A DNA stretch of 63,109 nt, filler included, from Globobulimina sp. (lineage: Eukaryota): the NCBI GenBank assembly GCA_003354225.1. It is 46 parts of 46 records of this genome, joined end to end, with 100 filler letters (N's around TTAATTAATTAA, not from the genome) between each part and the next. Parts side by side here need not be neighbours in the genome. Positions count along the whole stretch, not along the records: positions 31,616 to 32,889 come from PIVH01019636.1; 45 more parts are not named here. One strand, written 5' to 3'. Within the stretch, counting starts at the first letter, position 1; each line of letters opens with the position of its first letter. Below, piece after piece: positions 2,306-32,989 of the stretch. A program made the translations under genes and the position numbers. Below the pieces are notes generated by a model. It saw only the letters and a list, made by a program, of their open reading frames with translations, was not told the DNA's origin and made no database searches.

Positions 2306-2632
2306 TTATTGTGCATATTTGTTGACTGCTTTGCTTGCCTCAGTTTCAGCATGTTTTGATAGCTCGCCTGGTAATACTAATTTGCACGCACATTGAACTG
2401 CTCTTGCGTCCATTGTGGCTTTTTTATTGTATTTGACAATATTGGCTGCTTCGGCTGCGATCCGATCAAATGTGTCATGCACAAATCCGTTCATTACGTT
2501 CATGGCTCTTTTACTCATTCCAATGTCTGGATGCACCTGTTTCAAAACCTTAAAAATATAAATGTTGAATGTCTCTTTTCTTTTTCTGTTATATTTTCTG
2601 CCTGCTGCGGGTGCTGCTGTTTTGGCCGACAT
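2306..2632 (-). CDS. H2B: Histone H2B (108 aa), directly upstream of H3 on the same strand
   Basis: RKRKETFNIYIFKVLKQVHPDIGMSKRAM...LVLPGELSKHAETEASKAVNKY. Confidence 0.96.
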   Translation of the reverse strand: MSAKTAAPAAGRKYNRKRKETFNIYIFKVLKQVHPDIGMSKRAMNVMNGFVHDTFDRIAAEAANIVKYNKKATMDARAVQCACKLVLPGELSKHAETEASKAVNKYAQ

Positions 2633-2781
2633 TCTTAATTGCAATGTTTTNNNNNNNNNNNNNNNNNNNNNNNNNNNNNNNNNNNNNNNNNNNNTTAATT
2701 AATTAANNNNNNNNNNNNNNNNNNNNNNNNNNNNNNNNNNNNNNNNNNNNTAATTATAATTATTTTTAATCACTAAAATGT

Positions 2782-4025
2782 CTATTTATATAATGAGTGT
2801 TGCGCATGGGATTTGCGTCTTATCTTAATTTTAGAAGTGAATGTTCCATCCTTTCTGTTGCCAGCCTCCGATTGAAATTGAATACTATTCGACTTCTGCT
2901 GTGAATCAAACTGAATAAAATGTTGCCGACAATTCTGTTGTCTTAATATAGCATCATTAATTTCTGCGGTTGTATCCGGAATGATATATCTTATGATTAA
3001 TATACAAAACAACAGCAACATTGTAATGACAAAAAATAGTACAAGCAAATATCTCTTATCATCGCCCACCAAATCTTTGGCCAATCGAGTTCGCCACGTC
3101 CATAATGCCATATTATTATAAATTGCAAACACATTAAATGAGCTCAACACTAATTTCCAAATTCCAATGCCATGACTTGCCATCGGAACCGGTCTTTGCC
3201 CAGTAATCAGATTATAAAAATCCACTCTTATTTCAAAATAATTATTAACAATACACAGTAACGGCATGACTGGGAACACAATCACAAATAACATAATATA
3301 TCCATGAAGCACCACAATCTCCGCAGTGTTATCCAGTACATCCGGACTGACATGCTTTACAATTTGAGTCTCAATGTCCGAATACAACATATTTAAAGAT
3401 AACTTATCATGCCTTGTTTTAATGTAATATGCTTCATTCAGCTCACGCAATTCCTCATTCTTTTTGATCTGTGCTCCTAATGAAAATTCAGTTTGTTTAT
3501 GTTCTTCAACGTCTAATTTTATATAATTGGAAACATTGCTGTTCGCCATAGAATTATAACTTTTCTTGTCGAGCTCTGCTTTTTCTTTCAATTTCTCATA
3601 TTTTCGCAATTCTCTCCGTAAACAATATTGCTGACAATACACAGTGAGCCATTCAACAAGTTTTGGTACCAATATCTCTGCAGAATTTTGAATAACAATG
3701 GCCGACACAAATAAAGTCACCAACTGAATGCGCAATGCTTCCAAGCGCAACTTATCAGACTCAAAAGCATCCCAATACGCAATGAAAAATAAGGAATTGA
3801 ATGAATTAAAAATGATAAAGAAGATTCTTTTGACAACTAAATTATTATAATAATGGATTTCTAAGCGGTGTCCTTCAAAGTCATTCAAAGCAAATGCTAA
3901 TTTGGTATAAATCGCATTCATTATTTGGATCTGGATGGCGTTGACCACTCCAAATGCGACAGAATAAATAGTATCCTCTGAATATCGTTGGCGTGCAATC
4001 CGTATGGCGGTCACAGCTGCGACGA
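2782..4025 (-). CDS. Anoctamin/TMEM16 family protein, C-terminal part
   Basis: EIVVLHGYIMLFVIVFPVMPLLCIVNNYFEIRVD...QRPVP...GIGIW; FNSLFFIAY; multiple TM segments. Confidence 0.88.
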
Positions 4026-13750: not shown

Positions 13751-14606
13751 TTCTAATATATAGGCAATATAAACATTCACGTCATCTTCGATTTTATTTA
13801 CAACCATTTCTTGTAATCCACCGCCAGATAATCGATGCTTAAATTCAGTCATTGCTCTTCGTATGATATCGCTTGCTTTGATATTTATTTTATATCCTTT
13901 AAAAAAGTCGCATTTCTCTACCCATTCTGTTTCCGTTTTAAATTTATATTTCTTATTAATAACTTGATCAATATGGGATAACTCAAACATATCCATCAAC
14001 ATTGACATTAATGGGATTTGATTATATTTGCTCACTGCAATGGTTTTTAAGAAATTCTTATTTTTCCCTGCATCTTGAAAGCCTGCATTTGGACATTGGA
14101 CATTCATAAATTGGCCAGCTTGTTGTATTTTTTTTTCGTCATCACACGCTCTCCAATCCACATCATCTGTTTTTGTTATATATCGCTAGGATAACATGCA
14201 AACAACACACATATTATATAATTATATATAGAAACTTGGAGAGAATATATTGTCATCATCGTCTTCGGTAATTTCGCCGTTGACGATGGCGAGGAGGACT
14301 TTGAAGAATGTAGCACAGAAATTAATGTCTTCAAAGCCTGCCGCTTCGGCATGTAACTCATCCATAAATGCGGAATCATCCCAAGCGCCTTGATCTAAAT
14401 CCTCGATAAATGCATCTGCTTCGTCAAACTATTCAGTATTGTGAATATAGTATATATTTGCAGGTAGACATTGTTGTGCTTTTTATAGATTGTACCAAAT
14501 TTTCCAATGTGGTTATGAATGCTTTGGCAATTTTACTATTAAACCTATTCTGCACCAGATTTTTCCATTTGTCGGAAATGACATCAAAAGCTTCTTTTTC
14601 TGCCAT
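13751..14606 (-). CDS. Three-exon hypothetical protein (introns 14429-14495 and 14167-14235), paralog of 14665+, 3' partial
   Basis: Splicing two GT-AG introns gives the continuous frame MAEKEAFDVISDKW...LENL|FDEADAFIEDLDQGAWDDSAF...CATFFK...FSP|NDVDWRAC. Confidence 0.75.
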
Positions 14607-14664
14607 TCACGAGGACTGAATGTTTTGAGCTCAAAGATTTCTGAAGAAAAAACTTTGCATTTAA

Positions 14665-15025
14665 ATGGCAGAGGAAGATTTCAGTGCGCAATCGAAACAT
14701 TGGGCGTCTAAGATAGCACACAAGTTTGGCGACAAAGCAGGTGAACAATTCCTCGATGTTGTGTTGGACTTATTTGAATCCACAGAAGAGTTGCTCGCAG
14801 ATTTAGAAGTTGAAGAATGGGATGAAAGTGCTTTAGTGGATACATTAAATTCAGATAAAAACGCATATCACGATGCAAATCTATGTGCAACTTTTTATAA
14901 AACCTTGAAAGTTATCATCGAAGGTCAAGATACCTTATCCGCAGACATAGTATTATTACCAACCGATATCCGACGGGATATTGAGCAAAAAGAGCTTATC
15001 AAAGCGAAAAAATATATGCATATGC
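14665..15025 (+). CDS. Hypothetical protein, paralog of the divergent gene, 3' partial
   Basis: MAEEDFSAQSKHW...LFESTEELLADLEVEEWDESAL...CATFYK. Confidence 0.7.
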
Positions 15026-15302
15026 NNNNNNNNNNNNNNNNNNNNNNNNNNNNNNNNNNNNNNNNNNNNTTAATTAATTAANNNNNNNNNNNNNNNNNNN
15101 NNNNNNNNNNNNNNNNNNNNNNNNNTTTTTTAATTTAATTAACAACTTTAATCTGTATTTTTTCGTGGTGATAAAGCAAAAATGCATGATTAACGTTATC
15201 GGAGAGGCATGAAGATTTGTTGAGATTTGTTGGAGAGGCAGAAATATTTAAATAATGGGAGTACGCTGTCATATTACAGCCAAAAAAAGAAAATGAGCAA
15301 AA

Positions 15303-16400
15303 TCAGTCAATCTCAACCATATCATCATCATCATCTTGTACTTCCACATCCAGATCTTCCTCCTCCTCTTCCTCCTCCTCCTCCTCATCATCATCATCTT
15401 GATCCATATTGTTTTCTTTTTGTAATTTCCAAATATGCGCATAATTTTTATTACTATACGTTGTCGCCAATACCTTTGACTGTAAATGCGCTAAAATCTC
15501 CTGGATCAATTTCAATTCCTTTTCATTAAACTTTTTAATTCCAGTTTTTCTATTATTTTTCACAAATTTTACTTTATACCATTTATGCGTAATAGTCAAT
15601 ATATTATTCACTGTGATTGCATTTGGAGAATATTTATGTGATAATATCGGTAAACTAAACATAATTATTGCAATAAAATGAGATAAATCATACAGTTCCT
15701 CCGTGATTATAGCCATCAAATAATTAATATATGACACAATAATGTCACAGCATTCAATCTCATAACTTTTCTCCATTTCGTCTTCTTTTTTGTTCTCTTC
15801 CTCTTTCTCTTCCAATTCTTGCTTTAATTTTGCTTTTTTATTTGATTTTTTTTTGCTGGATTTTTTATGCGAACATGTGCGATGAGAATTTTTTCTATTC
15901 CGTGACGGTGTGGGTCTTGGCGGAGTAATCAAATTTTTTGTTAAAAAATCGGTGCTCGCGCGTTGTTCCAGTTCTTTATTGCGATCAATCACCGATTTCG
16001 GAAAAGGTGTGCTTATATTAGTTATATTATCCAATTCGGTTAGATTTGGACTATGATTCTCATAAAGATCATCATCGGCGATATCAAATGAATCGGCCAT
16101 GTTTTTTAAGTTTTTATTTTGTTGATTGACTGGCTTTGATAAAGCATCGATCAAAGCACCTCTTGATTTGGTAAAGGGAGTGATTTTGGGCGTCTGTTGC
16201 ACGCACATTTTATGTGCCGTATCTTGCTTAGTTTGGTTATATTTTGCATCTAATTTTTGTAGGTCGTAGCGACATAAATACATATCGCGTAATTTAGAAA
16301 TTAAATTTAATGGTTTATTGGTTTTAATATCCGTCGCATTGTCACATACATCATTTAATATATTTATATATTTTGGTGGTGAATGTAGATAATTTTTAAT
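15303..16400 (-). CDS. Hypothetical protein C-terminus with acidic tail
   Basis: Long ORF, K-rich NLS-like stretch, poly-E/D end. Confidence 0.45.
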   Translation of the reverse strand: MKNYLHSPPKYINILNDVCDNATDIKTNKPLNLISKLRDMYLCRYDLQKLDAKYNQTKQDTAHKMCVQQTPKITPFTKSRGALIDALSKPVNQQNKNLKNMADSFDIADDDLYENHSPNLTELDNITNISTPFPKSVIDRNKELEQRASTDFLTKNLITPPRPTPSRNRKNSHRTCSHKKSSKKKSNKKAKLKQELEEKEEENKKEDEMEKSYEIECCDIIVSYINYLMAIITEELYDLSHFIAIIMFSLPILSHKYSPNAITVNNILTITHKWYKVKFVKNNRKTGIKKFNEKELKLIQEILAHLQSKVLATTYSNKNYAHIWKLQKENNMDQDDDDEEEEEEEEEEDLDVEVQDDDDDMVEID

Positions 16401-16503
16401 NNNNNNNNNNNNNNNNNNNNNNNNNNNNNNNNNNNNNNNNNNNNTTAATTAATTAANNNNNNNNNNNNNNNNNNNNNNNNNNNNNNNNNNNNNNNNNNNN
16501 GTA

Positions 16504-17412
16504 GTGACTGCACCAAATGTGCCGCCAGATTGGGACAGCACAGCTCCGGCATATAAAGTCAATATAATTAATAAAAAAGGTATCATGTATTATAAACCAG
16601 ATTGGGAGGATAACGTTGATAAAAAGGAAAATGACATTGATACCGGCTCCTATAACCCCGCAATTCCCCTATCACCGTCCAATACGTTCACAAGAGGCGA
16701 TGCCTGCTTCCATGAGATTATTCGAGACCATCCAGACTCTCTACGGATGCAACAGTATCCAGCCCGCCGTCAAACATACAAAAGACAGAGACGAAAAATG
16801 ATGAAGAAAATCCAAGAAAATAAGCAAACAAATAAAAAGTCCGAGATTGTAGCAGAACAAATAAGAAATATTAAGAGAACGGGAGCATGCGTCAAATATG
16901 AAATTAAGAATGAAGAAATATGGGTTGTAGATTTGAGAAAAGATTTGGTGGATTATAGAGAGGTGTGGCAATTAGAAAATCTATGCAATATTAGCAATGT
17001 GAGCGTGTCCACCAACTCATTTGGCAAAGACCCAGATTATGCCAAAGCGATTGAAATATTATACCATTTCACCGATCATTTGATACCATCGACAATAATA
17101 TTAAATGACAGAAGAATATTGCATTTGGACCCGATCATCGGTTCCAGCACAGAATCAATGCTAATGGACCTGAACTGGGATGTATCTAATCCGAAATTTG
17201 AGCATAATGACATTGAAATCGAATATATTAAGAAACGATTAATTTACTGGCCCGTAAATATGTGCCTATTTAATGTCCCATTAACTCATTGCAGCGCATC
17301 ATTACAAGCAAAATCAAAGCAAATATACATTCGATATTTATTTTGTATACAATTAAAAAAGCGATGGCAAACGATTACGATATGTCGAAAATCGATTATA
17401 TTCCGCTATTGA
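16504..17412 (+). CDS. Hypothetical protein fragment
   Basis: 302-aa ORF; no family recognised. Confidence 0.35.
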   Translation: MTAPNVPPDWDSTAPAYKVNIINKKGIMYYKPDWEDNVDKKENDIDTGSYNPAIPLSPSNTFTRGDACFHEIIRDHPDSLRMQQYPARRQTYKRQRRKMMKKIQENKQTNKKSEIVAEQIRNIKRTGACVKYEIKNEEIWVVDLRKDLVDYREVWQLENLCNISNVSVSTNSFGKDPDYAKAIEILYHFTDHLIPSTIILNDRRILHLDPIIGSSTESMLMDLNWDVSNPKFEHNDIEIEYIKKRLIYWPVNMCLFNVPLTHCSASLQAKSKQIYIRYLFCIQLKKRWQTITICRKSIIFRY

Positions 17413-17875
17413 CTGAATTAATAAAGCGTACGAGATCAAAATGGAGAGATTAAAATTGGCGCAGAGAGAATTAGATAAAGAACGTTTGAATCCCACGCCA
17501 ATGAATGAAGATACAGACAGCAAATCCGAAGCGTCGAGTGATGACTCAGTAAATGATGAATTATGGTTTGCTGAGTTGACGAATGAAATAAATGGACAAT
17601 ATGTGAATATTTTGAAATTGATTAAAATTGATCATTTGTATGGGGATTGATCATGAGAATGGCACAATTTTTCTTGATTTGGATGGTAATTCCATATTGG
17701 AAAATAATTAAATTGTATTATACGCCCGCGGCTGCAGTGATTGGTGCGTTATTAAATTCGTGTTTTGGTAAATGTNNNNNNNNNNNNNNNNNNNNNNNNN
17801 NNNNNNNNNNNNNNNNNNNTTAATTAATTAANNNNNNNNNNNNNNNNNNNNNNNNNNNNNNNNNNNNNNNNNNNN

Positions 17876-18339
17876 ACGTTAATAAACAAACAATCTAGTG
17901 ATTCATATACAATTTGTAATCCTTTCGTTGTTATCATTTTGCGCAATAAATAACCTTCACTAACTTTTATTAAATTGCGTACTGAAATATTAATGTTAGT
18001 ATATAGTGAGTCTGGTTTGATTTCTTCATTCCATTTCTGCATTAAGTTCAATAATTTGATAGCTAATTGATATGCATTGGAAATATCTGACTGTAGAAAT
18101 TTTGCGGCTTCGTGTCTGTTAATATACAGAGTTACGGAATGGTTATTTGCAATACGGTCCTGTACATTTCTTGAATGATAATTTATCCATTTTGCCAATT
18201 CGTGTCTATTCTTTATTGTGTGTACCCAATCAATATCGCCTGTTTTCGATGTAGTGTGATTGACTAATCCGTGATGTATGTCAATATGTGTACCATTGGT
18301 ACAATTTAATAGGAAGTAGCAAACGAGCCAAACAAGCAT
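17876..18339 (-). CDS. Hypothetical secreted protein, 3' partial
   Basis: Signal-peptide-like start MLVWLVCYFLLNCTNG. Confidence 0.4.
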
Positions 18340-18470
18340 TTGATGATCCTCTGATTAAAAACACTAAGAAATGGAAAACTTAAAACTAAAGAAACAAAAG
18401 TAATTAAAATATCAGCTATAGAAAGGGAGAAAAGTCAGAAAACAATAATCAGAACAACACAAATCGATAT

Positions 18471-19149
18471 TCAATCAGTATAGGTGTAATTCCATGAATT
18501 CCACTCTCCCAACAATAAGTTTGGTCGATCGTAAAATAAAATATTTTTCATTGCTTCATAACAAGGATCGTATATTCGATGGATATTGGCAGAATACCAC
18601 GCATTGTGCTCATGCACATTTGCAGCATTTTTGATGTGATTATGTTTTTCAACGTCAGTGACAAATAACTTTTTATCGCCATCCATATGTTTATCACATT
18701 CCATATGATTCAAATCCATCATCCAACATTTTATTATTTTCATCGAACGCTCCAAATCAGAAAATAACCACTCAAATTGAACCACTCTGTACGCCTTAAT
18801 GTCAGTCCATTGATTCCATATTTTATTATTCAAAACCTCATCATATGAAAATAACGCAATCAAAAATACAGGAAATGTGAATGGAGCCCAAATATGTATA
18901 TCTTTTCTTGGCATAGAAGCAATATCTTGTGGCTCCACAAACTTTCTCCGGAAGTATGTGACAATGAATTCTTTGTAAACAGTTGTTTTTAATTCCAAAT
19001 ACCGTTTTATTCCAACAATTCCATCATTATTCAATTCATTCCATTTGGAATTCATTCGCTTGCAAATCCCATTTAAAACCGCAAACGATTCCTTTCCGTC
19101 AATATCTTTGATGATATCCCGTTTCAAAGCAAAAATTGTATCGGCGTGG
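18471..19149 (-). CDS. Hypothetical protein, 5' partial
   Basis: ORF of at least 218 aa near the contig edge. Confidence 0.4.
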
Positions 19150-19338
19150 NNNNNNNNNNNNNNNNNNNNNNNNNNNNNNNNNNNNNNNNNNNNTTAATTA
19201 ATTAANNNNNNNNNNNNNNNNNNNNNNNNNNNNNNNNNNNNNNNNNNNNTCAAACAATAAAACAAATCTCACTAAACATTAAACAACGATTATTCATGAA
19301 CACTAACTCCAATACCAATGAAATGCACAATTTAATAA

Positions 19339-20523
19339 TTGAGGCCGAGAACGAGTTTGTTCAGAACAAACAATCTAAATCACTCCAATAAACTAAAAAC
19401 ATTCAAAACTTATAATAAAAATAAAGATTTCATTGTCGATGAGCCATTCCTGACTTATAAAAATAAAATAATGGATAAAAATACTGCACTGCAACAATTC
19501 TTTGGTTCCATATGTGGGCCGATGACAGACCCGACCATTAATCACAAAATTGATGATATAAATGACTTTGAGGAGAATCTAACAAACCATGTCCCGAATA
19601 AATTGGTGTTTATTCCAAATAAACCACAGAAACCCGATAATGCGGAACCTCCGCCGCTTGAAGCCATTGCTGCTGACCCTGTCACCATAAATGAGTCTGC
19701 AGTTAACGACACACTGACACCCCATTTTGATCCAAATTACCTCCCTCCAACTCAACCCATATTAAATGAACTATACAACTTAGAGCATGATAATAACAGC
19801 GATACAGACAATGATGACGACGTCATAATGAATATCCAACAGCAAACTCCTGGATATTTCCCTGACCGTAATATCACACAAGAAAATGATGAGAAACAAG
19901 AGTGCGAAGACCTACCTGACCCCAAAGCTTCCAAGTTCAAATCGATAGAGCTTGCGATAAAACAGGCAAACCCCAACAGCGCCCCCGGTTATGACGGCAT
20001 CAAAACTATACATCTTAAAACAAATCAAAACCTGATAAATGAAGTTCTATGCACACTTTATAACGTCTGGAATGCCACGTACCACATTCCATACTACTTC
20101 AGACTTGGAACAATAATTCCAATCCTAAAAACGCCGAATGGATGCACGCCAAACCAATACAGACCCATAACTCTCCTACCTATTATATTTAAAGCATATG
20201 AAAGGTTGGTACTGTGGGAAATGTGCATACAACATAAATTCAGAGCAAACCTTCATATCTTGCAAGGCGGAAACCGCTCCAGACGAGGGGTGCCAGAACA
20301 GATAGGAGCACTGAATCTAATTGCCGAGACTGCAAAGATGCGCAACATACCATTGTACTGTGCGTTGCTTGATATACGTAAAGCATTTGATACTGTTTGG
20401 AGGAAGGGATTAATATATAAACTGCATAATGATTTCAATATTCCTATTCACATTTGCAAGATAATAAAAGCGATATACAATGACTCCCACGCGGCAATAC
20501 GTGATATCCCCTTCATCTCAAAC
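19339..20523 (+). mobile_element. Non-LTR (LINE-type) retrotransposon reverse transcriptase, N-terminal domains
   Basis: SAPGYDGI, IIPILK, YRPITLL...KAYERLV, QGGNR..RG, LLDIRKAFDTVWR. Confidence 0.93.
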
Positions 20524-20835
20524 NNNNNNNNNNNNNNNNNNNNNNNNNNNNNNNNNNNNNNNNNNNNTTAATTAATTAANNNNNNNNNNNNNNNNNNNNN
20601 NNNNNNNNNNNNNNNNNNNNNNNTGAAGATATCTTAACACCTCCACTCAAAGTCGCCATTAAGACCTCACGATATATCGGAGAAACATAACCCCAAAGGG
20701 GACTATTAAACTTTTCACCACGTACTGTGCAAAGAGAGAAAAAAACAAAAACACTGAAAGGCAGAAAGTCCGGAAGGCACCAAAACACGCAAAGAAGTCC
20801 GTAAGTCTCACAAAGAACGACACAGCTAAAGCAAA

Positions 20836-21523
20836 CTACCATTGGTGGACATCTGGCAACGACAAAGGCGTAGGAAGCGGCTGCATAATCCAACCATTAC
20901 GATTACATATACGCACACCGCGGGTCATAAACTCGCGTATCTCAAAACGTGACAGCAAATCAGGCAATTTATTCTTTTTCGTATGCACATAATCAATATA
21001 AAGCTGCATATGTTCCTCCACTGCATACATACAAACCCAACGCAAACCTGACTGCAGAAAATCATCCGAAGCATTTTTATTAAGTAATATGGCCTCAACG
21101 TGCTTGTTGTCGGTCTTCAACAGCAATTTGGTACGCGATTGGAGCAAATGGCGGAAAGTATAAAGGCCTGCGATGATAGCCAATAACTCGAGAAAGTGTA
21201 AATTTGGGATCAATTAAGTCATCGATGGACACACTGCTTACGACATCAATGTACCTCAACCACCAAATCAGATCCTTCAGCTCCCACTCCTTGAGATCAA
21301 TAATCACATCCTTCCGACCATAATGCTCAATATGTTTGTAAAGGGAGTGACGAAGACGGCGCAGGAACGCCTTGCCAGGCCATCCCAAATTGGAAACGTC
21401 CTGCAATTTACTAATGAGGGATTCGAAAATCTCCAAAGGCATCGCACGATGCAAAAGGGCCGCATTGATAACCTGCTTAATTTTCCATATGCGCGAGTCC
21501 GAGATAGCGATGGTAAACGTCAT
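20836..21523 (-). mobile_element. Degenerate DIRS-type retrotransposon RT C-terminus/RNase H
   Basis: SLISKL...WPGKAFLRRL...DLIWW, then a frameshift to FLELLAII...KTDN...YVHTKKNKLPDLLSR. Confidence 0.8.
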
Positions 21524-21997
21524 CGTATTGATAGCTTCTTTACTTTGGCTGGCCTTCGAACCCGGATTTGAGCCATTTATTGTGACACTTACGTCCGTTT
21601 TAACATTGAAACTAATCAGAGCTGGGCTAAAATGACCATTCCTATGAAACAGGCATTAATGAAGATGTGGCCAGGTAAAGAGCCGCACGAACTTGTTAAT
21701 GCACCAATTATGGTTTTAGCGCAAGTGACGGAAGCTAAAGGCCAATACGCCGCCGGCCATCAACTGGTATTAAGCAATGTTCCGCAAGTTCAGCAACCAG
21801 TAGCACAAGCCGCACAGCCAGGATTGCCAGCTCAACAAGAAACTCCATTTTAATGTTACAACCAGGTGATATACTTGGCATCGTTTATATAGAAAAANNN
21901 NNNNNNNNNNNNNNNNNNNNNNNNNNNNNNNNNNNNNNNNNTTAATTAATTAANNNNNNNNNNNNNNNNNNNNNNNNNNNNNNNNNNNNNNNNNNNN

Positions 21998-22510
21998 AAT
22001 TATGATTCCATCGTTTGCTTTATTAAAAATTGTTTTAAATTTTTCTTCATTCTCCCGCAGCGCCTCCTCAGCCTTTTTTCGCTCGGTGATGTCACGCTGA
22101 ACACCCCAAATTCTGGTTACCTTGCCATCCTCAACAATTGTTGTATGACTTTCCAACACCCTAAAAGGCCGACCTTCGCTGTCAAAATTAATGGCTTCAT
22201 TTTCTCTGCTATGAAAACTTCCGTCTTTTGCGTTGAACAAATTTTCTCCCCATTCTTGAATTGCGCTGATTGCTCTCTCCTTGAAATCAGGTACATAAAC
22301 AAGTGGAGATGTGCCTACGACTTCATCAGGGGTTACTCTATATCTCTTTGCCATAGCTTCGTTGATCTCGGATACTACAGCCCTTTTGGCAATGAGATCA
22401 CTTATTTCTTCCTCTGGAAGGTTAAGGGGAACTGGAGGGGAATAATCAAGGCGATAAATAAATTCGGAAGTGTTTTGAATAAAGTTACGGTAGCGCTCTT
22501 CGCTCTCCCT

Positions 22511-22542
<32 letters not shown>

Positions 22543-23271
22543 TGTCAACAACAATTCCTCTCAAACCTGCCATCTTGTTATTCTTAATAATCCGATTTGT
22601 GTATGTTATTATTGGAAAAGTGGATCTGTCTTTTCTCAGCCCGGTATATTCAACGATTTCAAACTCCTCACCACCCAATAAGCGCGCCATATTTTCTTTT
22701 GCTCTGTCTCTATCTTCCGGTATAAATAGTCGAAAGGGATCAAAACTATTATCAAAATTATTTTTTGAATATCCAAATAAATCATATACATGTTCGTTTA
22801 TGAATGTAAGGTTCCCCTGAAAATCAAATTCAAAAACGACTTGAGGCAATAAATTTACCATTTCTTTGTAGTTATTTTCACTCTCCCGCAGCGCCTCCTC
22901 TGTCTTCATGCGCTCGGTGATGTCTTGAACAGTTCCACGAAGTCCAGTGATATGCCCTGCATTATCATACACAGGTTCACCTCGAGTTGAAATCAGTCGT
23001 ATCACGCCGTCTGTTCGAATCATCTCCAAATCGAGATTATATGGTGTTCCTTTATCTAAAGCCGTTCTTCCTGCGATGTCCAGTCGCTTAAAGCTTTCGG
23101 GAGTGTAGAGCGATGTATCTTTTTCATAAGTTGGTGTAGTATTATTCGGATCGCGCCCAAGGATATTGTAGAGTTCTTTCGACCAAATAGCGGTGTCTGT
23201 TCCTGAATCCCACTCCCAACTGCCGATACTGGCAATTCGTTGTGCTTCTGTAAGCCTTCTCTCACTCTCCC
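21998..23271 (-). CDS. Prokaryotic multi-PAS/PAC sensor protein fragment (open across the whole contig)
   Basis: Three DITERx..EEALRE(S/N)E PAC linkers; AQRIASIGSWEWD; intronless; higher GC than neighbours. Confidence 0.92.
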
Positions 23272-23371
23272 NNNNNNNNNNNNNNNNNNNNNNNNNNNNN
23301 NNNNNNNNNNNNNNNTTAATTAATTAANNNNNNNNNNNNNNNNNNNNNNNNNNNNNNNNNNNNNNNNNNNN

Positions 23372-24111
23372 TTGCCGAAAATATTATAATATGCTTCATC
23401 AATTTGTAACGGATCGTGTGACAAATGGCTGGCATATACAATAAAAAAGGGATTGTCTGCGGTGGAATTGTCATAGTTATCAATTAAATTATACACTTTT
23501 TTCGCAAATTTAAACTCTTCAAACTCGCCATCATTTGCATCATTATATGCAGGATTGTGAGTGTCCCATAGATCATAGACTTGAAACCCGTATTTTTGAC
23601 ACGGATGCGCCCATTCATAGTTTGTGAAATATGTATTTGCGTGAGATAAATAACCAAAACTTGAGTCGTATCCTCGGTTTACTGGGAGTTGATTTGGTGT
23701 AGAACTGCCGGCGTCCCATTTGCCTATAAACGCAGTTGCATAATTAATTGCAGAATATTTGAGCTTCTCTGCGATCAGTGTCATGTTGATGGCCGCTCCG
23801 GAATATTGATTCGATGCTGACTCGCCATTACTTAGATTTATATGAACGGGGAGCCTTCCGGATTGAAAAGAAGTACGTGTTGGACTGCAAGAATAATGAA
23901 CGTAATGTCTGTTTAAAATTAAGCCTTCCTTTGTGGCCAAATTGTTTATATTTGGCGTTTCTATTTCTGTATTTGTTGGTGAATTATATCCAATATTGCC
24001 CCAACCTAAGTCATCTATCAGAAGGAATAATATGTTCGGAGCTGTAGCATTGATAATAGTGATGAACAACACTGATATCGATGCTACTACTCGTACTGGT
24101 GACGATGGCAT
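23372..24111 (-). CDS. Secreted arylsulfatase B-like sulfatase, 3' partial
   Basis: Signal peptide, PNILFLLIDDLGW, CSPTR (CxPxR), IGKWDAG, RGYD. Confidence 0.92.
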
Positions 24112-24745
24112 TTTTGTTTGATACTCTGTGGAGGACTTACAACAAAGTTTTGGTTGGTTTTGATGAACGTTAATAGCTTATTGTGCAAGTTCGATCAATG
24201 ATCATTTGTTTTCATGACTTTTTTTTGTGCTATTAAAGCAGAAATAATCACTCTTCTAACAATGTTAAGTTAACTTAAGTGGAAATAAAAGGATTTGGAT
24301 TAATTCACATGTTTGTAATTGGTTGATACATATTGTATTGCGTTGGTGTTTTTGATTTAAAATAAAATGCAATATCCTTAGAAGAACATCCATCGTTAAT
24401 ATCCAATTTCTGCCAATTTATCAGCAATTATTAGGCTCCAATGATAACTGAGTGCATTTGTTTGATTGAACATTTTGCATAATCTTTGAGTGTAATGCAT
24501 GTGTTGTTATTTTGTTTAATTCGCCCACCAAACACTTTTTGATACCATTCAGAAATGTGTTGCATTACAGAAAAATCTTTTGTTTCTATACGAATTCCAT
24601 CATTTAATGCATTTCCTCCTCTAAATACCCGGACATAATTGATGCNNNNNNNNNNNNNNNNNNNNNNNNNNNNNNNNNNNNNNNNNNNNTTAATTAATTA
24701 ANNNNNNNNNNNNNNNNNNNNNNNNNNNNNNNNNNNNNNNNNNNN

Positions 24746-25294
24746 CAAACCAAGAGTATATACTGTTTTGTAGTTGGTCGGTGTTTGTATTTGTATTACA
24801 ATTGGTGCTATTTTTATTGGTATTGTATTGGTATTGTGGCTGTGTTTGTTGTGTTTGTTGTGGTTGTTGTGGCTGCTGTGGTTGCTGGTTATTGTTAAAA
24901 AAACTGTTAATAATATTACCGTTATTGAGTGGTTTGTCATTCGCAAATGTCTGAAATTGCGATTGTGGTGGGTTGCTATTATGGTTATGATTGCGATTGT
25001 GTTGGATTGTGTTATTGGAATTGAATGGCCATGGTTGTGATTGCCATTGTGGTGGATTGCTAATTATGTTTTGGGATTGTTGTTGATTGCTTGTATTATT
25101 TGCTCCGCAAACAAAACTATATATAATTTATTTACAAATAGATACTGTTGTAAAGAGATTGAAATACCTACCATGCATTAGTAGACCATGGATTGGTGGA
25201 TGCGCTATGTTTATTTTATTTTTGTAAATTATATATATGCGTTTGGGATAAATTCATACCATACTCCACAATTCCAATTATTCCAATTAAACAT
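24746..25294 (-). CDS. RanBP2-type zinc finger protein with N/Q-rich tail (introns 25205-25259 and 25117-25171), 3' partial
   Basis: Spliced product MFNWNNWNCGVCASTNPWSTNACFVCGA matches W-x-C-x2-C-x3-N-x6-C-x2-C exactly. Confidence 0.85.
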
Positions 25295-27493
25295 TTCAAA
25301 TTTTATTTTTAACTTCCAAAAAAGAATGTTTATATTATATATAATCTTCCACGTTATAATACTGTATTGAGTGGAGAAGAGGATGTTGGAAAAGTTTTTT
25401 GAGTTTGGAGAAAACCGAAGTGAACAAATGTCACTCTTTACATGAACAATCATCATTATTGTACGATATTGTGTTATTGTTAATATTTGAAAATTGAATT
25501 ATTGCACATATTTTATATTCTTGTACATTTTCTGTAAATTTCTGACAAAAATGATCCCTCGCAATTTACAAAACGTATCGAAAACGGCATCACATTCACA
25601 TAAATATGCTTTATTCCATGCACATAAACGGAAAATTATCAACAACAACACATTACATTCGAATACATTATCAATGTCATATAACCCATCATCGACACCA
25701 TCATCCTATGCATTAACCAACAATTCAAATTCATCTATCACATACAATCAAAAATATTGTTTCTCAAAAACAAAAAAAACACATCCGACTGACACGAGTG
25801 ACCACAAACAATCCACTCCGTCAAATCTTAATTTATCACCAAAAGAACAAGAAAACATCGGAAATATTTTCCAAAATTTATCTAAAACGGGACAGACGAA
25901 TTTTGTACAATTTATCTCGCAAATTCTGAATATTTCCTCTCTTCATACTCTACAATTATCATCTATTGATTTACTAATACAATACGAAAAGAGTTTTGAA
26001 TCTGTTTTAGAACTTTTGANNNNNNNNNNNNNNNNNNNNNNNNNNNNNNNNNNNNNNNNNNNNTTAATTAATTAANNNNNNNNNNNNNNNNNNNNNNNNN
26101 NNNNNNNNNNNNNNNNNNNGCATGAGCTTTTTTAGATCGTTTTTGTTGCTATTTATTATGTACATTTTATACATAAATAATATAATTTATGATTGATCTT
26201 TAATTAATTTAAAATGTTTAGCCTTTGTCCCATAAGAGTTTCCGTGAAATAAGTAGCGACTTTATATATGAGTTTGATTGAGTGACTGTTCATATTTTGA
26301 TTGAGTGATCTAACATACTGTTTTTCTCATAATGGCAAAAGTGCCTGTATTATTTAGTTAGTTTGTTTGGATATTGTTTAAAAACAATATCAAAACAATG
26401 TATCTTAAGGCAATACTGTTTAAAACACTGTTTAATTTTTACACGGAAAAAAGTGCAAGTTTGGTGATATGTAAAAACAGTATATGACATATTGTTCAAC
26501 AAAACACACTATACCCAATATTATTTTGATATGGTTGTGTGAATTTTCTTTTATTTTGTTTGCTATATGTTGTGTTTGACAATCTTATGATGTAATGTCT
26601 CACAACAATCTTATGATTATTTATTAAGTCAATGTTCGAGCACTTGTGTGCCTTTTTGGGGAAGAAAAAAAAAAGTGTTTGTACTAGCACTGAATATACA
26701 GTACAAATATTTCAGACAGTATATTTTTCTATGGCATTAAAAACAATACCAGAAGCATAAACATATCATATTTTACACTGTCTATTTGTACTGTCAATCA
26801 GTATAAATTTTATACCCGTACACAGTACATTTTTGGAGAGGTCTATTTACTCAAATGTTTTTTTAGAGTAAATACTTCATTTACTTAAGTCGTTTCGCAG
26901 TTCTTTTATCTTCTTGAAAGATAAAAAAAACCAGGAGCCCCATATAAACTCGACAAAACCCATTAGTCACACTACTTCGTTAGTGCTTTCCTAACAGGAT
27001 AAAAGATATGCAGCTACGTACTCATAATTCCATTTTGTACTTGTAAAACTCATAATTAGCATTTTTAGCATCAATAAACTGAATAATATCACACATTGTG
27101 ACAACTTCTCAAAAACAAACCACCCTACAAAACTGCAAAACTCTGCACATACTGACTACCAACCATGTTGAACATGTTCATGCTGATCATCATTTTGTTG
27201 ACCCACAAAATAATTGGAGCACAACAAATGCAACATAAAGTTATGTGAACTTATTTGTGTCTATTTAACATCTTACATTCATTCCGTTTAATTTTGTTTG
27301 AATTGATTGTAGCATTCAAAAAATATGGGAATCAGGAGATTATTACCAAATGTTAAGAAAGCACAGAGATCATTGTTAAGTGGAGTGCTGCCGNNNNNNN
27401 NNNNNNNNNNNNNNNNNNNNNNNNNNNNNNNNNNNNNTTAATTAATTAANNNNNNNNNNNNNNNNNNNNNNNNNNNNNNNNNNNNNNNNNNNN

Positions 27494-28048
27494 GTTTGTT
27501 GTGGTGTTTATTGAGGTAACATTGTTGTTGTTATTGTAGTTCTGAGATAACATATTGTTCATATTATTCATCGTATTCATCGTATTCATGTTGTTGTTGT
27601 TATTATAATTATTGTTATATTGAGGTTGTTGGTATGTTGATTGGATTGGTTTTTGCGAGTATGAATTGTATTGATTGTGATTATAATTGTTATTGTTATT
27701 AATATTATTGTTGTTGATATTTGTATTGGTACTGTTATTGTTATTGTTGTTGTTATATTGCATCGTAAAATTATGACTAGCAATACTATGATTATTATGT
27801 TGAGGGACTGGGACTGGGACTGGGACAACGGACACATTTATTGCTTTCCTTTTTCCATTTTGACCAAAAATAGGCTGATATTGGACATGTTGCCCAGGTG
27901 CAAGGCTTTTAAAATGTGAATAGGTTATGATATCTTTCCAATGCACAAAGATGCTCACAGAATTATCGTTGGGTGTAATCCATCCATAACCTTTGCTGCA
28001 ATCAAAACTAGCACATGTACCATGACATATGTTATTACAATTTGACAT
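27494..28048 (-). CDS. Cold-shock domain protein with Asn/Gln-rich tail, 3' partial
   Basis: GTCASFDCSKGYGWITP...IFVHWKDI...FKSLAPGQHV...KAINVS. Confidence 0.88.
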
Positions 28049-28867
28049 TGTTCAGTTCACTCTCTTCTGTATGTTATGTGTTGCAAATAATGAAATGATG
28101 GAACAAGTTGTTGTTAGAAGTAAAAAAATGTAAAGTGAAAATTGTGATTTTAATCCACATTTTTCAGGTGACAGACCATGTCTGCTAAAAAACAAGACTT
28201 TAATTTTGATGAAAGTGTACAAGGGAAATATGGTCAATTGAAGACTGTCAAGTCTTTTCTTGAGCTATCAATCAAAGCATATGATGATAATCTGCAAGGA
28301 TTATTGAGTTAAAATTTTGTTTTTATATATAAATAAAATTATAATCAACAAATAATTGACAGAATTTTTAAGCGAAGAGAATGAAACTTTGGAGAACAAT
28401 ATGTTGACAGAAATGAATGATGAATCCGTCTCAGAATTGGTGAGTAAATATGGCATAAATCCAGAAATATTGATAAGATTATTAACAAAACTCAGCGACT
28501 CTTTGGTTGAACCATTAGTCGAAGGATACTATGATCGAACAAATGATTTTGGAGATGCCACCAATTCAAAATATAGAAAAAAGAAAAAAAAGAAAGGTAA
28601 AAAAAAAGCAAAGCCATACAAGACACAAACAAACGTTGGCCGCAAACGCAGCAAAAACAAAAACAAAAACAAAAAGCCAAAAAATATAAAAGCATCAAGT
28701 TAATTATATAAAAATCCATGTTCATTGTGCAAGGATACAAATTAACAAATAAATACATATAAATAGCNNNNNNNNNNNNNNNNNNNNNNNNNNNNNNNNN
28801 NNNNNNNNNNNTTAATTAATTAANNNNNNNNNNNNNNNNNNNNNNNNNNNNNNNNNNNNNNNNNNNN

Positions 28868-29738
28868 TTTTTAGTGATTTACTTTGGGTTTCGATCCGTT
28901 TCGAGACTCTCCTGCGGATTTCAGGCGTTTTGGACTGGTTTTTGAGCGATTTGCTCTCAGTTTGGAGTCTTTTGGATTTGCGTCGGTTGCTTTGAGAGGA
29001 TGAACGTGGTCGGCATGGGGAGGATGATTTATTTTCAGTTTCGATCCGTTTTGATTTTCTGCGATTTGATTTATTTTCGGGTTTAACGTCGATGCGTTTG
29101 GATTTGCGTCGATGTTGGTTCATATCGTTGTGTTTGTTGTTGGTTTGGATCTGTTTGGATTTGCGCCGATGTTGGTTCATATCGTTGCGTCTATTTCCGG
29201 TTTGGATCTGCTTCGATTTGCGTCGATGTGGCTGGCTGTTTGTGTGTTTATTTTCAATTTGTTTTGATTTGCGGCGCTCTTTGTGTTTATTGTTTGGTTC
29301 GGTTTCAATTCGTTTTGATTTGCGTCTGTTTTTGGGCGTATTGCTATGATTTGTATTGTTTTGGGAGTTAGTTTCGGTTTGAATGCGTTTGGATTTTCTA
29401 CGATGATTTTGTGGTTCGGTTGGGATTATTTTCGAGGATCGCTTCACTTTTTTTATTTTTTCCATATGCCCTTTTTTCGAATTTTTCCTTATTTTTATTT
29501 TTATGTCTTTTGTATTTTTTTTATCTGATTCTTTGATTTTATTTAATTTATAAGTCAATGATGGAGTTAATGAATTTCTTTGCTTATTTTGTTTTGATTT
29601 ACTGTTTGTCAGCGACGTTTTATGTTTCTTTGGTTTGCTGGTTTTTGCTTTTTTAGGCAGAATTTCACAAATATTATCATCTTCATCGCTTAGTTCTAAT
29701 AAACCCATCAAATCCTCTGAAGCCATAATAGTTGTCAT
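28868..29738 (-). CDS. Basic protein with nine RRKSK(R/Q)(I/L)-type repeats, 3' partial
   Basis: Repeats visible in the protein and as (G)ATTTGCGTCG-like units in the DNA. Confidence 0.6.
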
Positions 29739-29805
29739 GATATAAAAGTAAATGTTTTTTTTGGTCCAAAAAATCACAAAAACATCAAGAAAACAACAAG
29801 AAATC

Positions 29806-30141
29806 ATGATGCTACTCTCTCTGTTATTCGCATTGGTATATTTGTTAAGTCCATGTACAGGCCAAACCACAACAAATACTGTACGTTTTTGGACATATAA
29901 AATAAAAGTCGGCGTCACAATGACCTATACATTATCTTCATTAAATGCAACACTTTCTGAAATAGGCCTAGTTACGGATGGTTTGATGGTAATTGAGAGT
30001 CAAACACAAATAGATGCAACGACAAAATTACGAGCAGACATAGATTACAAAGCATATGTCGACATAGATTTTATTCAAAATCAATTGAATGATACGTTTT
30101 CAAATACTATGATTCTAAATTTTACCCTCTGGACAGGTATA
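29806..30141 (+). CDS. Hypothetical secreted protein, 3' partial
   Basis: Signal peptide MMLLSLLFALVYLLSPCTG. Confidence 0.5.
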
Positions 30142-30409
30142 NNNNNNNNNNNNNNNNNNNNNNNNNNNNNNNNNNNNNNNNNNNNTTAATTAATTAANNN
30201 NNNNNNNNNNNNNNNNNNNNNNNNNNNNNNNNNNNNNNNNNCTCATTGTTTTAAAGTGCTACTTCTAGTTTCTAGAGCCAACGGATGAATATTTAGTGTA
30301 AATAAAAGGAGAACGTAGAAATTATGAAAAATTGTATACATGTATTTATATAAAATTGTTGAAAACTGTCAGGAAACACAATTAATGTTTAGTTTTAAGT
30401 TTTGTTTCA

Positions 30410-31473
30410 TTAATTCTCTGACGATTTGCACAGTTTCTTGGGTACATAAATAGCGCCTTGTTTTCCAAAAGGCCCAAATGCTGCTAATAATGCAATAAAA
30501 AATGTGAGTGAAAATACTAAACTAAGTAAAATAATTGACATCATTAAAATTCCCATCTTTTTGAAAACAACCATGCCAGGAAAGATTAAAAAAAATCCAG
30601 AACCAAATGTGGTAATACTCCCAGATGTAATTGATATACCCATTGTATATAACGCATATCTAATTCTTTCATATCTCGTTAATTTACATTCAACATAAGC
30701 TGCAGCAAAATGAACCACGTAATCCACTGAAAAACCAATCATCATCACAATAGAAATACTTTCAACAATACCTATTTGCCACCCTTGTAACTGCATAACC
30801 ATTAATTCGCCGCACATAATGCAAACGACAGTAAGTATTGCAAACATCGAAACAATCCAATTCCTCGTAAATATTATTAAAATGGCAAATGCTGCCGGCA
30901 ATGCTATGGCAAGCCCTTGTATTGCACTCGGAAGATATGCATCTGCAGATTCCATGAAACCAAAATGCTCTGACGATGTGAAAGCACCAGAAATATTTGC
31001 ATTTGGTGCTAAATCATTCCATTCTCTCACTTTAAAATCTAAATCATTTTTTGCTGCATATTTTAATTGATCATCATCACTTGGTGAGACTGTTAATGTA
31101 AACTGTATTGCGACATATTTTAATCGATTTTCCTCCGCGTTGTAGCCAACCGCACCATCAGCCAAATGTTGATGTTCTTCTGTTGTCCAATTTGCTATCA
31201 ATTGATGAAATGTTCTTCTTTGAATATCAGCATCAGCACTAAAATTAAACGGAAATTGCATATTCAAAGCACTTGACTTAGAAACATAAGTTATTAAATC
31301 ATAGAGAAAACAGTTAAGTTCTTCAGATGGATTAAATAATATAGGCGAATTTTTCAATTCTTGACAAATATCATAAATATATTGTTGTGATTCAACTGAC
31401 GATATATCGAAATGTTTATCATAACGAACGGTTCCACGGTCCACAGGATTCCACCGGTTCGCATCTGGTCTGT
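30410..31473 (-). CDS. Dispatched/Patched-like RND transporter, final exon
   Basis: GWQIGIVESISIVMMIGFSVDYVVH (GxxxD motif), six C-terminal TM segments, ALLAAFGP; acceptor AG at 31474-31475. Confidence 0.88.
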
Positions 31474-31756
31474 CTATATATACATATTAAAGTGCAGGTT
31501 AAATATTAAAAAAATNNNNNNNNNNNNNNNNNNNNNNNNNNNNNNNNNNNNNNNNNNNNTTAATTAATTAANNNNNNNNNNNNNNNNNNNNNNNNNNNNN
31601 NNNNNNNNNNNNNNNATTTACAGTTTTTTACAGATTATTCAAAATAAAAACATTGAAAGTCAAAATTGAATTCTTAAAGGTTGTGTTTCATCGGGAACCA
31701 TTAACATTTTATTATTAACCTATTTTCCTTCCGGGTTTTTCTACATTTGTTTATAC

Positions 31757-32521
31757 ATGGCATATTATGGAGCTCCTGGACCAGGACCACAGGCACAGAG
31801 ACGTCGTAAGAGAACTGTAGAAACGTTTAACATGTATGTTTTCATAACGCATTTTGCATGAAACCTTGCCAAATACATAATAAATTTTAACAGTTATATT
31901 TATAAAGTATTAAAATCGATGCATCCATCATTAGGAGTAACTAAAAACGCAATGGCTGTGATAAATTCATTTGTATTTGATTTTTTCCATAGAATTTGCA
32001 AAGAGGCAAAGAATTTGCAACAATTCTGTCGCAAATTATCTTTGACAGAAAAAGACATCAATACAGCCATACAATTAATACTACCAAATGAATTGGCAAA
32101 ACAGGCAATATCTGAAAATACAAAAGCAATCACAAAGTTTCAATGCTCTGTGGGTGGACCTGTATGCAGCAGATCTGAGCGTTGTGGTCTTCTATTTCCA
32201 GTTGGAAGGATTCAAAGATATATAAAACAGTATGGATATACTGATCGCATCGCCAATTTAACGGCTATAGCTTTAGCCTCTACATTGCAGTATTTAACAT
32301 CTGAACTATTGGAAGCTGCGGGGAACATTGCAAACGATCAAAGCAAGAAACGGATAGACCCAAGACATGTATTATTTGCCTTGCAGAATGATGATGATTT
32401 TAGTAAGTTAACTGATAATGTATGTATTCCAAATGCTGGAGTTAAACCAGATGCTGATAAGTCATCACTTGGTGTGGACATAGATGAAGGCAGTGTTAAT
32501 GACGGTGTTGATGATATTTAA
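31757..32521 (+). CDS. Fused histone H2B-H2A doublet (234 aa; exons 31757-31833 and 31894-32521)
   Basis: H2B fold ETFNI|YIYKVLKSMHP...LILPNELAKQAISENTKAITKF joined in frame to H2A fold SRSERCGLLFPVGRI...YLTSELLEAAGN...RIDPRH...NDDDF; 60-nt GTATGT...CAG intron containing an in-frame TGA. Confidence 0.93.
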
Positions 32522-32614
32522 TGTGATTTTATTGTGCATGTTCTCCGTGCTCGTGTGTACAGTGCTGTTTTTAATCTTTAATACACAGCAAGTTGGTAAA
32601 CGACATAACTCGAC

Positions 32615-32666
32615 AAATATTTGCCCCAAGATAGTTTCCAGGCATTTCTGTTTGGGGCAAATATTT
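32615..32666. repeat. 15-bp perfect inverted repeat with 22-nt spacer
   Basis: AAATATTTGCCCCAA (32615-32629) / TTGGGGCAAATATTT (32652-32666). Confidence 0.85.
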
Positions 32667-32989
32667 TTCGAATTAAGAATTTTTCCCAACTATACTGCTG
32701 TGGTTCACACTAAAAAAAAATCGTATTATGGCATCAATATTTTGCTTTCTTTTATACTTTCGTCTATTAAATTCAGCAGTTTAAAAATCCCCAAATATTA
32801 CAAAAAATTGGAAAAATACAAAAAAAAATTTGGCCAGGACATAAATTAAATTGGCCAGGCCAAGAAAAGGTGCTTTTCCATGAAATAAANNNNNNNNNNN
32901 NNNNNNNNNNNNNNNNNNNNNNNNNNNNNNNNNTTAATTAATTAANNNNNNNNNNNNNNNNNNNNNNNNNNNNNNNNNNNNNNNNNNNN

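Follow-up and report, generated by a model that had tools for sequence, protein, structure and literature searches.

Does a foraminifer encode its own H2B-H2A histone doublet, a fused design that has so far been confirmed only in giant viruses? The question is raised by a gene at positions 31757–32521 of a 63,109-base stretch of DNA from Globobulimina sp. (GenBank assembly GCA_003354225.1), here called the window, which an earlier inspection of the sequence (the original prediction) had described as an intron-containing gene for a single-chain H2B-H2A protein. Current eukaryotes, according to one source, as a rule lack fused histones (PMC10919886). We conclude that this is probably a real cellular gene of the foraminifer, whose product would be a single-chain H2B-H2A variant belonging to a small conserved family. 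With somewhat less assurance, we also favor the view that foraminifera own a vertically inherited, lineage-specific doublet, formed secondarily from split host histones and neither inherited from nor donated by giant viruses, which would make it the first confirmed spliced cellular H2B-H2A fusion. The best supported description is thus of a histone doublet that nonetheless belongs to a cell, undergoes splicing, and comes from modern histones of the host itself.

The doublet gene is the sole gene on its 1274-bp contig (PIVH01019636.1; 31616–32889 of the window). Eight public sequencing runs from four studies contain this contig in whole or in part, and four of them (X1, X2, X6, and X8) were compared with it, all as contigs. 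For domain searches and searches of the Protein Data Bank (PDB), we used the product of exon 2 alone (P0001, 208 aa), to which the residue numbers below refer. The parts of the gene are as follows.

31704–31756, plus strand: 5′ untranslated part, covered by the intron-less X2 contig and without an upstream ATG; an in-frame stop lies just before 31670.
31757–31833, plus strand: exon 1, with the ATG at 31757–31759, the short basic N-terminal tail of H2B (MAYYGAPGPGPQAQRRRKRTVETFN), and an Ile codon up to its second base.
31834–31893, plus strand: spliceosomal intron of 60 nt (GTATGT...TTTTAACAG), phase 2, GC 28%.
31894–32521, plus strand: exon 2, ending with TAA at 32519–32521.
31894–32140, plus strand: H2B histone fold in exon 2 (alpha1, alpha2, alpha3, and alphaC; residues 1–82).
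32141–32167, plus strand: linker QCSVGGPVC (residues 83–91).
32168–32452, plus strand: H2A part, with alphaN, the histone fold, and the docking segment to ...AGVKPD (residues 92–186).
32453–32521, plus strand: acidic C-terminal tail of 22 aa, predicted to be disordered, and the stop codon TAA.
32522–32596, plus strand: 3′ flank, probably the 3′ untranslated region, covered by the variant contigs of X6 (to 32579) and X8 (to 32596).

When the two exons were joined by script, they gave a 705-nt coding sequence (CDS) for 234 amino acids in one frame with a single terminal stop, reading ...RRRKRTVETFN-I-YIYKVLK across the splice. This agrees with the 60-nt, frame-restoring intron and the 705-nt length given in the original prediction, and also with its claim that H2B runs through a linker into H2A without a stop, except that the linker has nine residues instead of about eight. 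The composition of the gene (GC 35%; GC at third codon positions, 25%) lies inside the range of the other contigs in the window.

Removal of the intron can be seen in the sequencing runs. A 738-nt contig of X2 (depth 20.9) matches 31704–31833 plus 31894–32480 with 0 mismatches, and its joint (31833 to 31894, with 130 nt on the shorter side) skips the 60 nt between GT and AG; the bins inside the intron have a depth of 1.46 in this run, compared with 20.9 for the joined contig. The intron-containing form is present in X1 (31767–32071, 0 mismatches). The intron is removed exactly as predicted, whether X2 is RNA or DNA with a processed copy.

The frame stays open through the H2B/H2A junction in the raw DNA, with neither a start nor a stop between the halves, and contigs of three runs from three studies span this junction: X2, X6 (31886–32579), and X8 (32037–32596). 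Because these contigs bridge the junction, as the original prediction had proposed to check, an assembly chimera is excluded. The X6 and X8 contigs differ from the window at 34 and 21 positions, respectively. They share 18 coding differences and so constitute a second form of the doublet gene, ~95–96% identical to the first, which could be an allele, a paralogue, or the gene of a sister strain; X6 is labeled organism C, and X8 bears the organism label of the probable source run. In the X6 variant, moreover, the acidic tail is shortened by an in-frame deletion of 3 nt at 32506. Judged by these differences, the gene is under purifying selection that is looser than in canonical histones (relative to the ~95%-identical X6 variant, 14 changes at 134.3 synonymous sites and 13 at 489.7 non-synonymous sites, ratio ~0.25; 7 and 11 changes relative to the X8 variant, ratio ~0.45).

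Domain searches and structure prediction agree on what the gene would encode. P0001 matches the Pfam family PF00125 (Histone) in two stretches (3.2e-16; 60.1 bits against a cut-off of 26.4) and also CBFD_NFYB_HMF (9.2e-11, 42.3 bits). Among PDB sequences it is matched best by engineered single-chain H2B-H2A proteins, with collinearity over residues 1–186 (7wlp_A, 2.3e-51), and single H2B and H2A chains match residues 1–85 and 89–187, respectively (~1e-24 each). A gap of 2 residues separates the H2B and H2A matched stretches of the doublet, and the QCSVGGPVC linker stands in for the last residues of the H2B C-terminus and the whole H2A N-tail. An AlphaFold2 model built on a 47-sequence alignment (mean predicted local distance difference test score, pLDDT, 92.2; predicted template modeling score, pTM, 0.84) contains nine helices in the expected order: alpha1–3 and alphaC of H2B (residues 2–9, 17–44, 52–62, and 65–84), then alphaN, alpha1–3, and alphaC of H2A (93–97, 103–112, 123–148, 156–165, and 167–172). 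The pLDDT is high across the linker (block means 96–98) and low over the last ~25 residues (56–67 in the tail).

In a Foldseek search, the model lies on single-chain H2B-H2A and H2A.Z-H2B crystal structures with a root-mean-square deviation (rmsd) of 0.7–1.4 Å and ~46% identity, so that the structure prediction called for at the outset returns a confident H2A-H2B handshake pair. The best matches are single-chain chimeras (8yjm_G: TM score 0.83/0.94, rmsd 1.0 Å, 46% identity), and the Melbournevirus doublet 7n8n_B ranks well below them (27% identity). The model thus predicts for the doublet an intramolecular H2A-H2B 'dimer' that can be superposed almost completely on the engineered single-chain proteins. 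These chimeras (6w4l, 7wlp, and 8yjm_G, the comparison extending over 178 columns) have the same topology and a junction that differs by ~2 residues. They are artificial joins of canonical histones, whereas the foraminiferal protein is natural, diverged, and equipped with tails of its own; nevertheless, they show that a fusion of this kind is compatible with a native H2A-H2B dimer.

Residue conservation was read off the PDB alignment of P0001, with human numbering. The doublet keeps H2A R17, R20, R29, R32, R42, and R77, and with them the main DNA-contact arginines. In the H2A acidic patch, E61, E64, and D90 are retained, D stands in place of both E91 and E92, and Q in place of E56, leaving five of the six positions acidic. 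H2B E105, E113, K116, and K120 are also kept. The acidic C-terminal tail has 7 D/E versus 1 K/R (pI, or isoelectric point, 4.05) and replaces the H2A C-terminus beyond ...GVKPD.

These features suggest how the protein may have arisen and how it could act. In the foraminiferal lineage, an H2B gene of the local type would have joined, in frame, with an H2A gene, with loss of the H2A N-tail and exchange of the end of the H2A C-terminus for the acidic tail. The protein would then be made as a pre-paired 1:1 H2A-H2B module and, in our model, could dock on the (H3-H4)2 tetramer like an ordinary dimer; it retains the DNA-contact arginines, most residues of the acidic patch, and the docking segment as far as ...GVKPD. 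A nucleosome formed in this way would be without the H2A N-tail; its H2B tail would be short, its docking end truncated, and its C-terminal tail acidic. Its DNA ends may be looser, its tail-based regulation changed, and its DNA probably less tightly wrapped. As the doublet gene carries an intron, we suggest that it is a replication-independent variant, deployed beside the canonical, intron-less H2B and H3 of the assembly.

The doublet is not alone. A word-indexed protein search gave 7 hits among 459 candidates, and the closest relative, P0003, is a protein of 243 aa from the foraminifer Bolivina argentea (EukProt EP01084) with 77% identity, which is the kind of single-chain homologue that the original prediction had suggested looking for in protist data. 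Further members come from environmental data: P0004, P0005/P0161, P0009 (from a marine catalogue, truncated), P0012, and P0013/P0163. P0012 and P0013/P0163 were found by an exhaustive phmmer search of 1.84 billion representatives, which returned 10,251 matches at E<=1e-3 and 99 at E<=1e-30. Three further hits, the Tribonema minus protein P0007 among them, are near-canonical doublets with 42–46% identity. A search for homologues of 'shorter' length gave 18 candidates, none of them significant. Both halves are present in the same order in P0003, P0004, P0005, P0161, P0012, and P0013.

Family members are recognizable by short motifs. NSFVFDFFHRI, RYIKQYGY, KKRIDPRHV, and VCIP..G are common to P0004, P0005/P0161, P0012, and P0013/P0163, and the Globobulimina doublet carries the corresponding family signatures NSF[VI][FY]D, HRI[CL]KE, RYIK..GY, RI.PRH, and VC[IV]P, with an H2A part that ends in ..P[DE]. 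In a 7-member alignment, 44 columns are invariant, many of them in the H2A part, and the docking segment is invariant as well. The family forms a single clade in every tree. A scan of JGI metagenome contigs with the family alignment A2 gave 554 pattern matches, of which 0 were confirmed. By contrast with the wider set of doublets, the family is a distinct and tight group: among the 288 proteins and viral open reading frames (ORFs) that we gathered, 137 have the order H2B-H2A, 12 have H2A-H2B, 130 contain H2B only, 7 contain H2A only, and 2 contain neither, so H2B-H2A doublets as such are common in sequence space. At least one of the 288, P0016, looks like a synthetic PDB construct and was kept out of the trees.

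Which lineage did the two halves come from? The window contains a canonical H2B of its own, P0010 (2309–2632, minus strand), which lies on the contig at 1376–2650 together with a canonical H3 (1386–1787, minus strand); both are intron-less, uninterrupted ORFs, and the H2B has a short tail, ETFNIYIFKVLK. The original prediction had linked the doublet to this H2B by an ETFN-type signature, which is indeed common to both, although the H2B is situated on a different contig. P0010 is 82–88% identical to many short H2Bs, including those of Bolivina (P0170/P0249) and Nonionella (P0202/P0283), a resemblance that marks the assembly as foraminiferal. Such canonical foraminiferal H2Bs (P0010, P0170, P0202/P0283) resemble the H2B half of the doublet in the sequence ETFN(I/L)YI(F/Y)KVLK, in the short N-tail, and in 44% identity over 82 residues. 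They differ in that they are stand-alone proteins of 108–112 aa, ~80–88% identical to one another, whereas the H2B half of the doublet is far more diverged; and the canonical H2B gene of the window has no intron, whereas the doublet gene has one.

The ETFN motif, just before alpha1, occurs in 78 of 119 relatives of P0010, in none of 149 other doublet representatives, and in none of four viral ORFs. Within the family it is present in three of the five members that have a complete N-terminus (the window gene, the Bolivina protein, and P0009) and is missing from P0005/P0161; the remaining four members begin inside the fold. A quick tree of 127 H2B domains recovered the family (Shimodaira–Hasegawa-like approximate likelihood ratio test, SH-aLRT, 93) but left it unplaced. 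A more careful tree was built from 53 of the 127 rows and 94 columns; the other 74 rows were left out, and the choice was made after the quick tree. In this tree, the family (99/95) and 10 foraminifer-type canonical H2Bs, P0010, P0170, and P0202 included, form a clade with support of 95/94. Doublets on three giant-virus contigs of the IMG/VR database (L001–L003) fall in a clade elsewhere, apart from the family. The H2B half thus looks home-grown rather than viral.

A tblastn search for a canonical H2A elsewhere in the 63-kb window found none. The H2A trees hold no foraminiferal canonical H2A, and so they cannot address the origin of the H2A half. The separate phylogenies that the original prediction had proposed therefore answer half of the question: the H2B half groups with foraminiferal H2Bs, and the H2A half forms a clade of its own. 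In these trees, the two halves do not both nest within viral doublets. Host-lineage origin is the best supported reading of these sequences; for the H2A half it falls short of proof.

The flanks of the gene bear on its provenance too, since sequencing depth marks both ends of the contig as repeats.

31616–31744, unstranded: high-copy repeat with which the contig opens on its 5′ side, recognized by depth; it includes a 32-nt element at 31701–31732.
32777–32889, unstranded: second repeat, closing the contig on its 3′ side, recognized by depth.

Summed word depth in X1 is 14,587–31,691 over the 5′ repeat, versus ~4–5 over the gene. Over the 3′ repeat, it is 93–663 in X1 and up to 248 in X2, where the gene has ~5 and ~21, respectively. 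Within the same DNA sample, the doublet gene thus sits among repeats of high copy number, and it is because both ends are high-copy repeats that the contig is so short.

A number of observations weigh against a cellular, host-derived nucleosomal variant. The genomic context of the gene is nil, given a contig of 1274 bp and the artificial concatenation of the window. The spliced CDS that the original prediction hoped to see in a transcript is represented by the joined contig of X2, but no record identifies that run as RNA. The 95/94 support in the careful H2B tree is no higher than the threshold, and the 53 rows were picked after the first tree. In approximately unbiased (AU) tests on the quick tree, a foraminiferal constraint changed the log-likelihood (lnL) by +39.9 (p 0.86) and a 14-row viral-type constraint by +43.1 (p 0.89); because both of these opposite constraints beat the poorly optimized free tree, the tests say nothing either way. 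The H2A half of the family, while a clade (99; 100/100), sits on a long stem (0.54) and has no resolved neighbors. On the protein side, the pI of the doublet is 8.83 (6.66 in Bolivina and 5.89 in P0012), compared with 9.92 for canonical H2B, and H2A R71 and K74 are replaced by N and S. Because of this low basicity and the loss of R71 and K74, nucleosomal DNA binding is not assured. Finally, the protein and its place in chromatin are predictions from sequence and model.

The last of these points lead to the alternative that survives best, namely a protein that is cellular but not nucleosomal: a soluble mimic of H2A-H2B, for example a decoy or buffer for H2A-H2B chaperones and acidic-patch binders, or else a histone-fold module of some other complex. 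We regard such a role as possible though unlikely, and, given the low charge, as a serious functional rival. Beyond the low charge, the acidic tail, and the two lost residues, it would account for the six cysteines of the doublet, an unusual number for H2A/H2B, one of which (in VCIP) is invariant, and for a constraint that is moderate and not histone-like (ratio ~0.25–0.45). A natural non-nucleosomal precedent appears in the Foldseek list, where the tandem histone folds of Son of sevenless are found (1q9c_B, 18% identity). The doublet is, however, 46% identical to true H2A-H2B with an rmsd of ~1 Å, and it keeps the main DNA-contact arginines, five of six acidic-patch positions, and the invariant docking segment, features that matter mainly in a nucleosome. 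We therefore continue to prefer a nucleosomal variant.

Next in order is a giant-virus provenance, in which the contig belongs to a foraminifer-infecting virus of the Nucleocytoviricota or carries an endogenized viral gene; the virus could at an earlier time have captured host histones and fused them. Such a capture would account for the resemblance of the H2B half to foraminiferal H2Bs, and the arrangement of H2B before H2A with a short linker is itself a viral hallmark. The nearest cluster in the Atlas (score 0.93) comprises 96 doublets, of which 91% are labeled viral; the doublets of L001–L003 are eukaryote-like, with 37–40% identity to ours; the order H2B-H2A is widespread (137 of the 288 gathered proteins); the AU test did not reject a viral-type grouping; and a 1274-bp contig without gene context leaves room for a viral island. 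Against this stands a spliceosomal intron that is removed exactly, as cytoplasmic nucleocytoplasmic large DNA viruses (NCLDVs) typically have none (Talbert et al., 2022, on marseilleviruses; PMC9145170). The H2B half clusters with foraminiferal canonical H2Bs at 95/94 while the viral-type clade is separate, ETFN is absent from all 149 doublet representatives and all four viral ORFs, and the gene is flanked by repeats that reach very high copy number in the same DNA run.

Searches aimed at viral relatives point the same way. Scans of IMG/VR with the single protein and with the family alignment A2 gave no family-type match, and what a scan with the mixed alignment A1 recovered was limited to distant doublets and singlets of viruses. 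None of the 28 contig ORFs of the window that were scanned matches a giant-virus hallmark family. The motif AAAATTGA, considered as a mimivirus-type promoter, was rejected, as it has 9 matches in the window where chance alone would give 18.06 ± 4.87; the caution in the original prediction that its upstream copy might be fortuitous was well placed. We therefore consider a viral provenance improbable. The nuclear gene of the host lineage that had been proposed instead gains support from the exact removal of the intron, the repeat flanks, the Bolivina relative, the H2B clade, the ETFN motif, and the negative IMG/VR scans.

As a separate observation from IMG/VR, the contig L004 (198,721 bp) carries divergent singlet genes for H2B (2463–2792, minus strand; ...NFNAYIYKVLK) and H2A (2971–3345, plus strand). 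Both are near to eukaryotic canonical forms and, from their sequences, look like a recent capture from a host.

The remaining explanation, an artefact in which an assembly chimera or the mis-joining of neighboring H2B and H2A genes produced the doublet, is hardly credible, for although animal 'fusions' have been reported as splicing mis-annotations (Talbert et al., 2022; PMC9145170) and the listed X1 contigs leave 32072–32176 uncovered, it is refuted by the bridging contigs of X2 (0 mismatches), X6, and X8 and by six database proteins with both halves in the same order, and the frame is open across the junction with no start or stop between the halves.

How does the foraminiferal doublet compare with other histones? 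It resembles the doublets of Nucleocytoviricota (Marseilleviridae, Melbournevirus 7n8n, and L001–L003) in having H2B followed by H2A, a short linker in place of the H2A N-tail, and a predicted intramolecular fold pair. It differs from them in sequence (27% identity to Melbournevirus and 37–40% to L001–L003), in its spliceosomal intron, its repeat-flanked foraminifer contig, and its host-type H2B half, and also in charge: its C-tail is acidic whereas theirs are basic, and its pI is 8.8 versus 9.9–10.6. In the variant H2A.B, the canonical H2A end beyond ...GGVLPN is likewise lost, and the H2A.Bbd-H2B chimera 6a7u is 39% identical to the doublet. In mammalian H2A.B, the altered docking end loosens the DNA ends, and the acidic patch is reduced. 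In contrast, the foraminiferal protein largely keeps the acidic patch, has an acidic tail, and is fused to H2B.

Other collinear H2B-H2A ORFs occur in data sets derived from eukaryotes, among them P0007 (Tribonema minus; a gene model), P0017 (MMETSP; a transcript), P0018 (EukProt; a Trinity transcript), P0006, and P0028. They differ from the foraminiferal doublet in being near-canonical (42–46% identity to it), with basic tails and non-foraminiferal H2B neighbors. The careful tree joins P0006 to a plant H2B (100/80) and P0028 to two canonical rows (97/92). These five may be recurrent separate fusions, viral transcripts, or model errors.

Full-text literature searches turned up no account of a natural core-histone doublet in a cell, nor of the foraminiferal family; an already characterized family, which according to the original prediction would remove the novelty, thus did not come to light. 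Irwin and Richards (2024) surveyed histone repeats in viruses (PMC11222145), and a 2026 review of histone gene organization mentions doublets, in its accessible part, for archaea and viruses only (PMC13525598). A 2026 preprint on Allogromia describes 17 H2A and 8 H2B paralogues with life-stage-specific expression, and its accessible part makes no mention of a fused form (10.64898/2026.10.21.760831). The doublet would add a concrete candidate to this unusually large repertoire of histone paralogues reported for a foraminifer (10.64898/2026.10.21.760831).

The lack of eukaryotic doublets has been used in the debate on whether viral doublets are relics from before the last eukaryotic common ancestor (LECA). 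A cellular doublet with a modern, host-type H2B half would indicate that fusion can be recent and recurrent, and would weaken the reasoning that a doublet must be ancient. If our reading is true, a 'tethered dimer' of the kind postulated for the early evolution of nucleosomes can evolve anew and exist beside canonical histones, and a pre-paired, tail-poor, acid-tailed module could serve the extreme nuclear cycles of foraminifera, with their massive endoreplication, chromatin breakdown, and gamete formation. The protein would also offer a natural test bed for the effect of covalent pairing on H2A-H2B exchange, chaperoning, and nucleosome stability.

The setting of the gene deserves some further remarks. 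By script, the 63,109-base window consists of 46 segments of 1273–1275 bp, sorted by length, with 45 identical 100-bp linkers (N44-TTAATTAATTAA-N44) between them. Since the assembly is highly fragmented and the window merely strings its short contigs together, the fact that two genes are neighbors across a linker is meaningless, and there is no synteny to be read. An Rfam scan of the whole window gave 0 matches.

Two small repeats lie close to the gene. The 32-nt element at 31701–31732 has a very high summed depth and variable flanks on both sides in contigs of X1, X2, X6, and X8, with loose ends before 31701 and behind 31732/31733, and it occurs as a single copy within the 63-kb window. It may be a foldback repeat or one resembling a miniature inverted-repeat transposable element (MITE), as some loose ends resemble its reverse complement. 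The intron-less X2 contig begins inside this element, at 31704. A spliced leader was considered for the element and set aside, as it is contiguous with the gene in both the genomic contig and the X2 contig. In the 3′ flank, we noted by eye a perfect 15-bp inverted repeat (32615–32629 and 32652–32666) with a 22-nt loop, which overlaps a stretch at ~32648–32691 where several runs show raised depth and loose ends; this, too, is probably a small repeat.

Elsewhere in the window, 28 of the 43 longest contig ORFs were scanned against Pfam, and nine match families, among them anoctamin, reverse transcriptase, PAS, and sulfatase, with further matches to cold-shock, GT2/chitin-synthase, cadherin-like, and PH families. 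The reverse-transcriptase ORF at 19339–20523 (RVT_1, 3.3e-09) is probably a fragment of a retroelement without long terminal repeats (non-LTR). The contig at 21998–23269, with a GC content of ~42%, is filled by a single minus-strand ORF of repeated PAS domains (PAS_3, 7.1e-21; PAS_9; PAS_4); it looks bacterial and may come from a contaminant or a symbiont.

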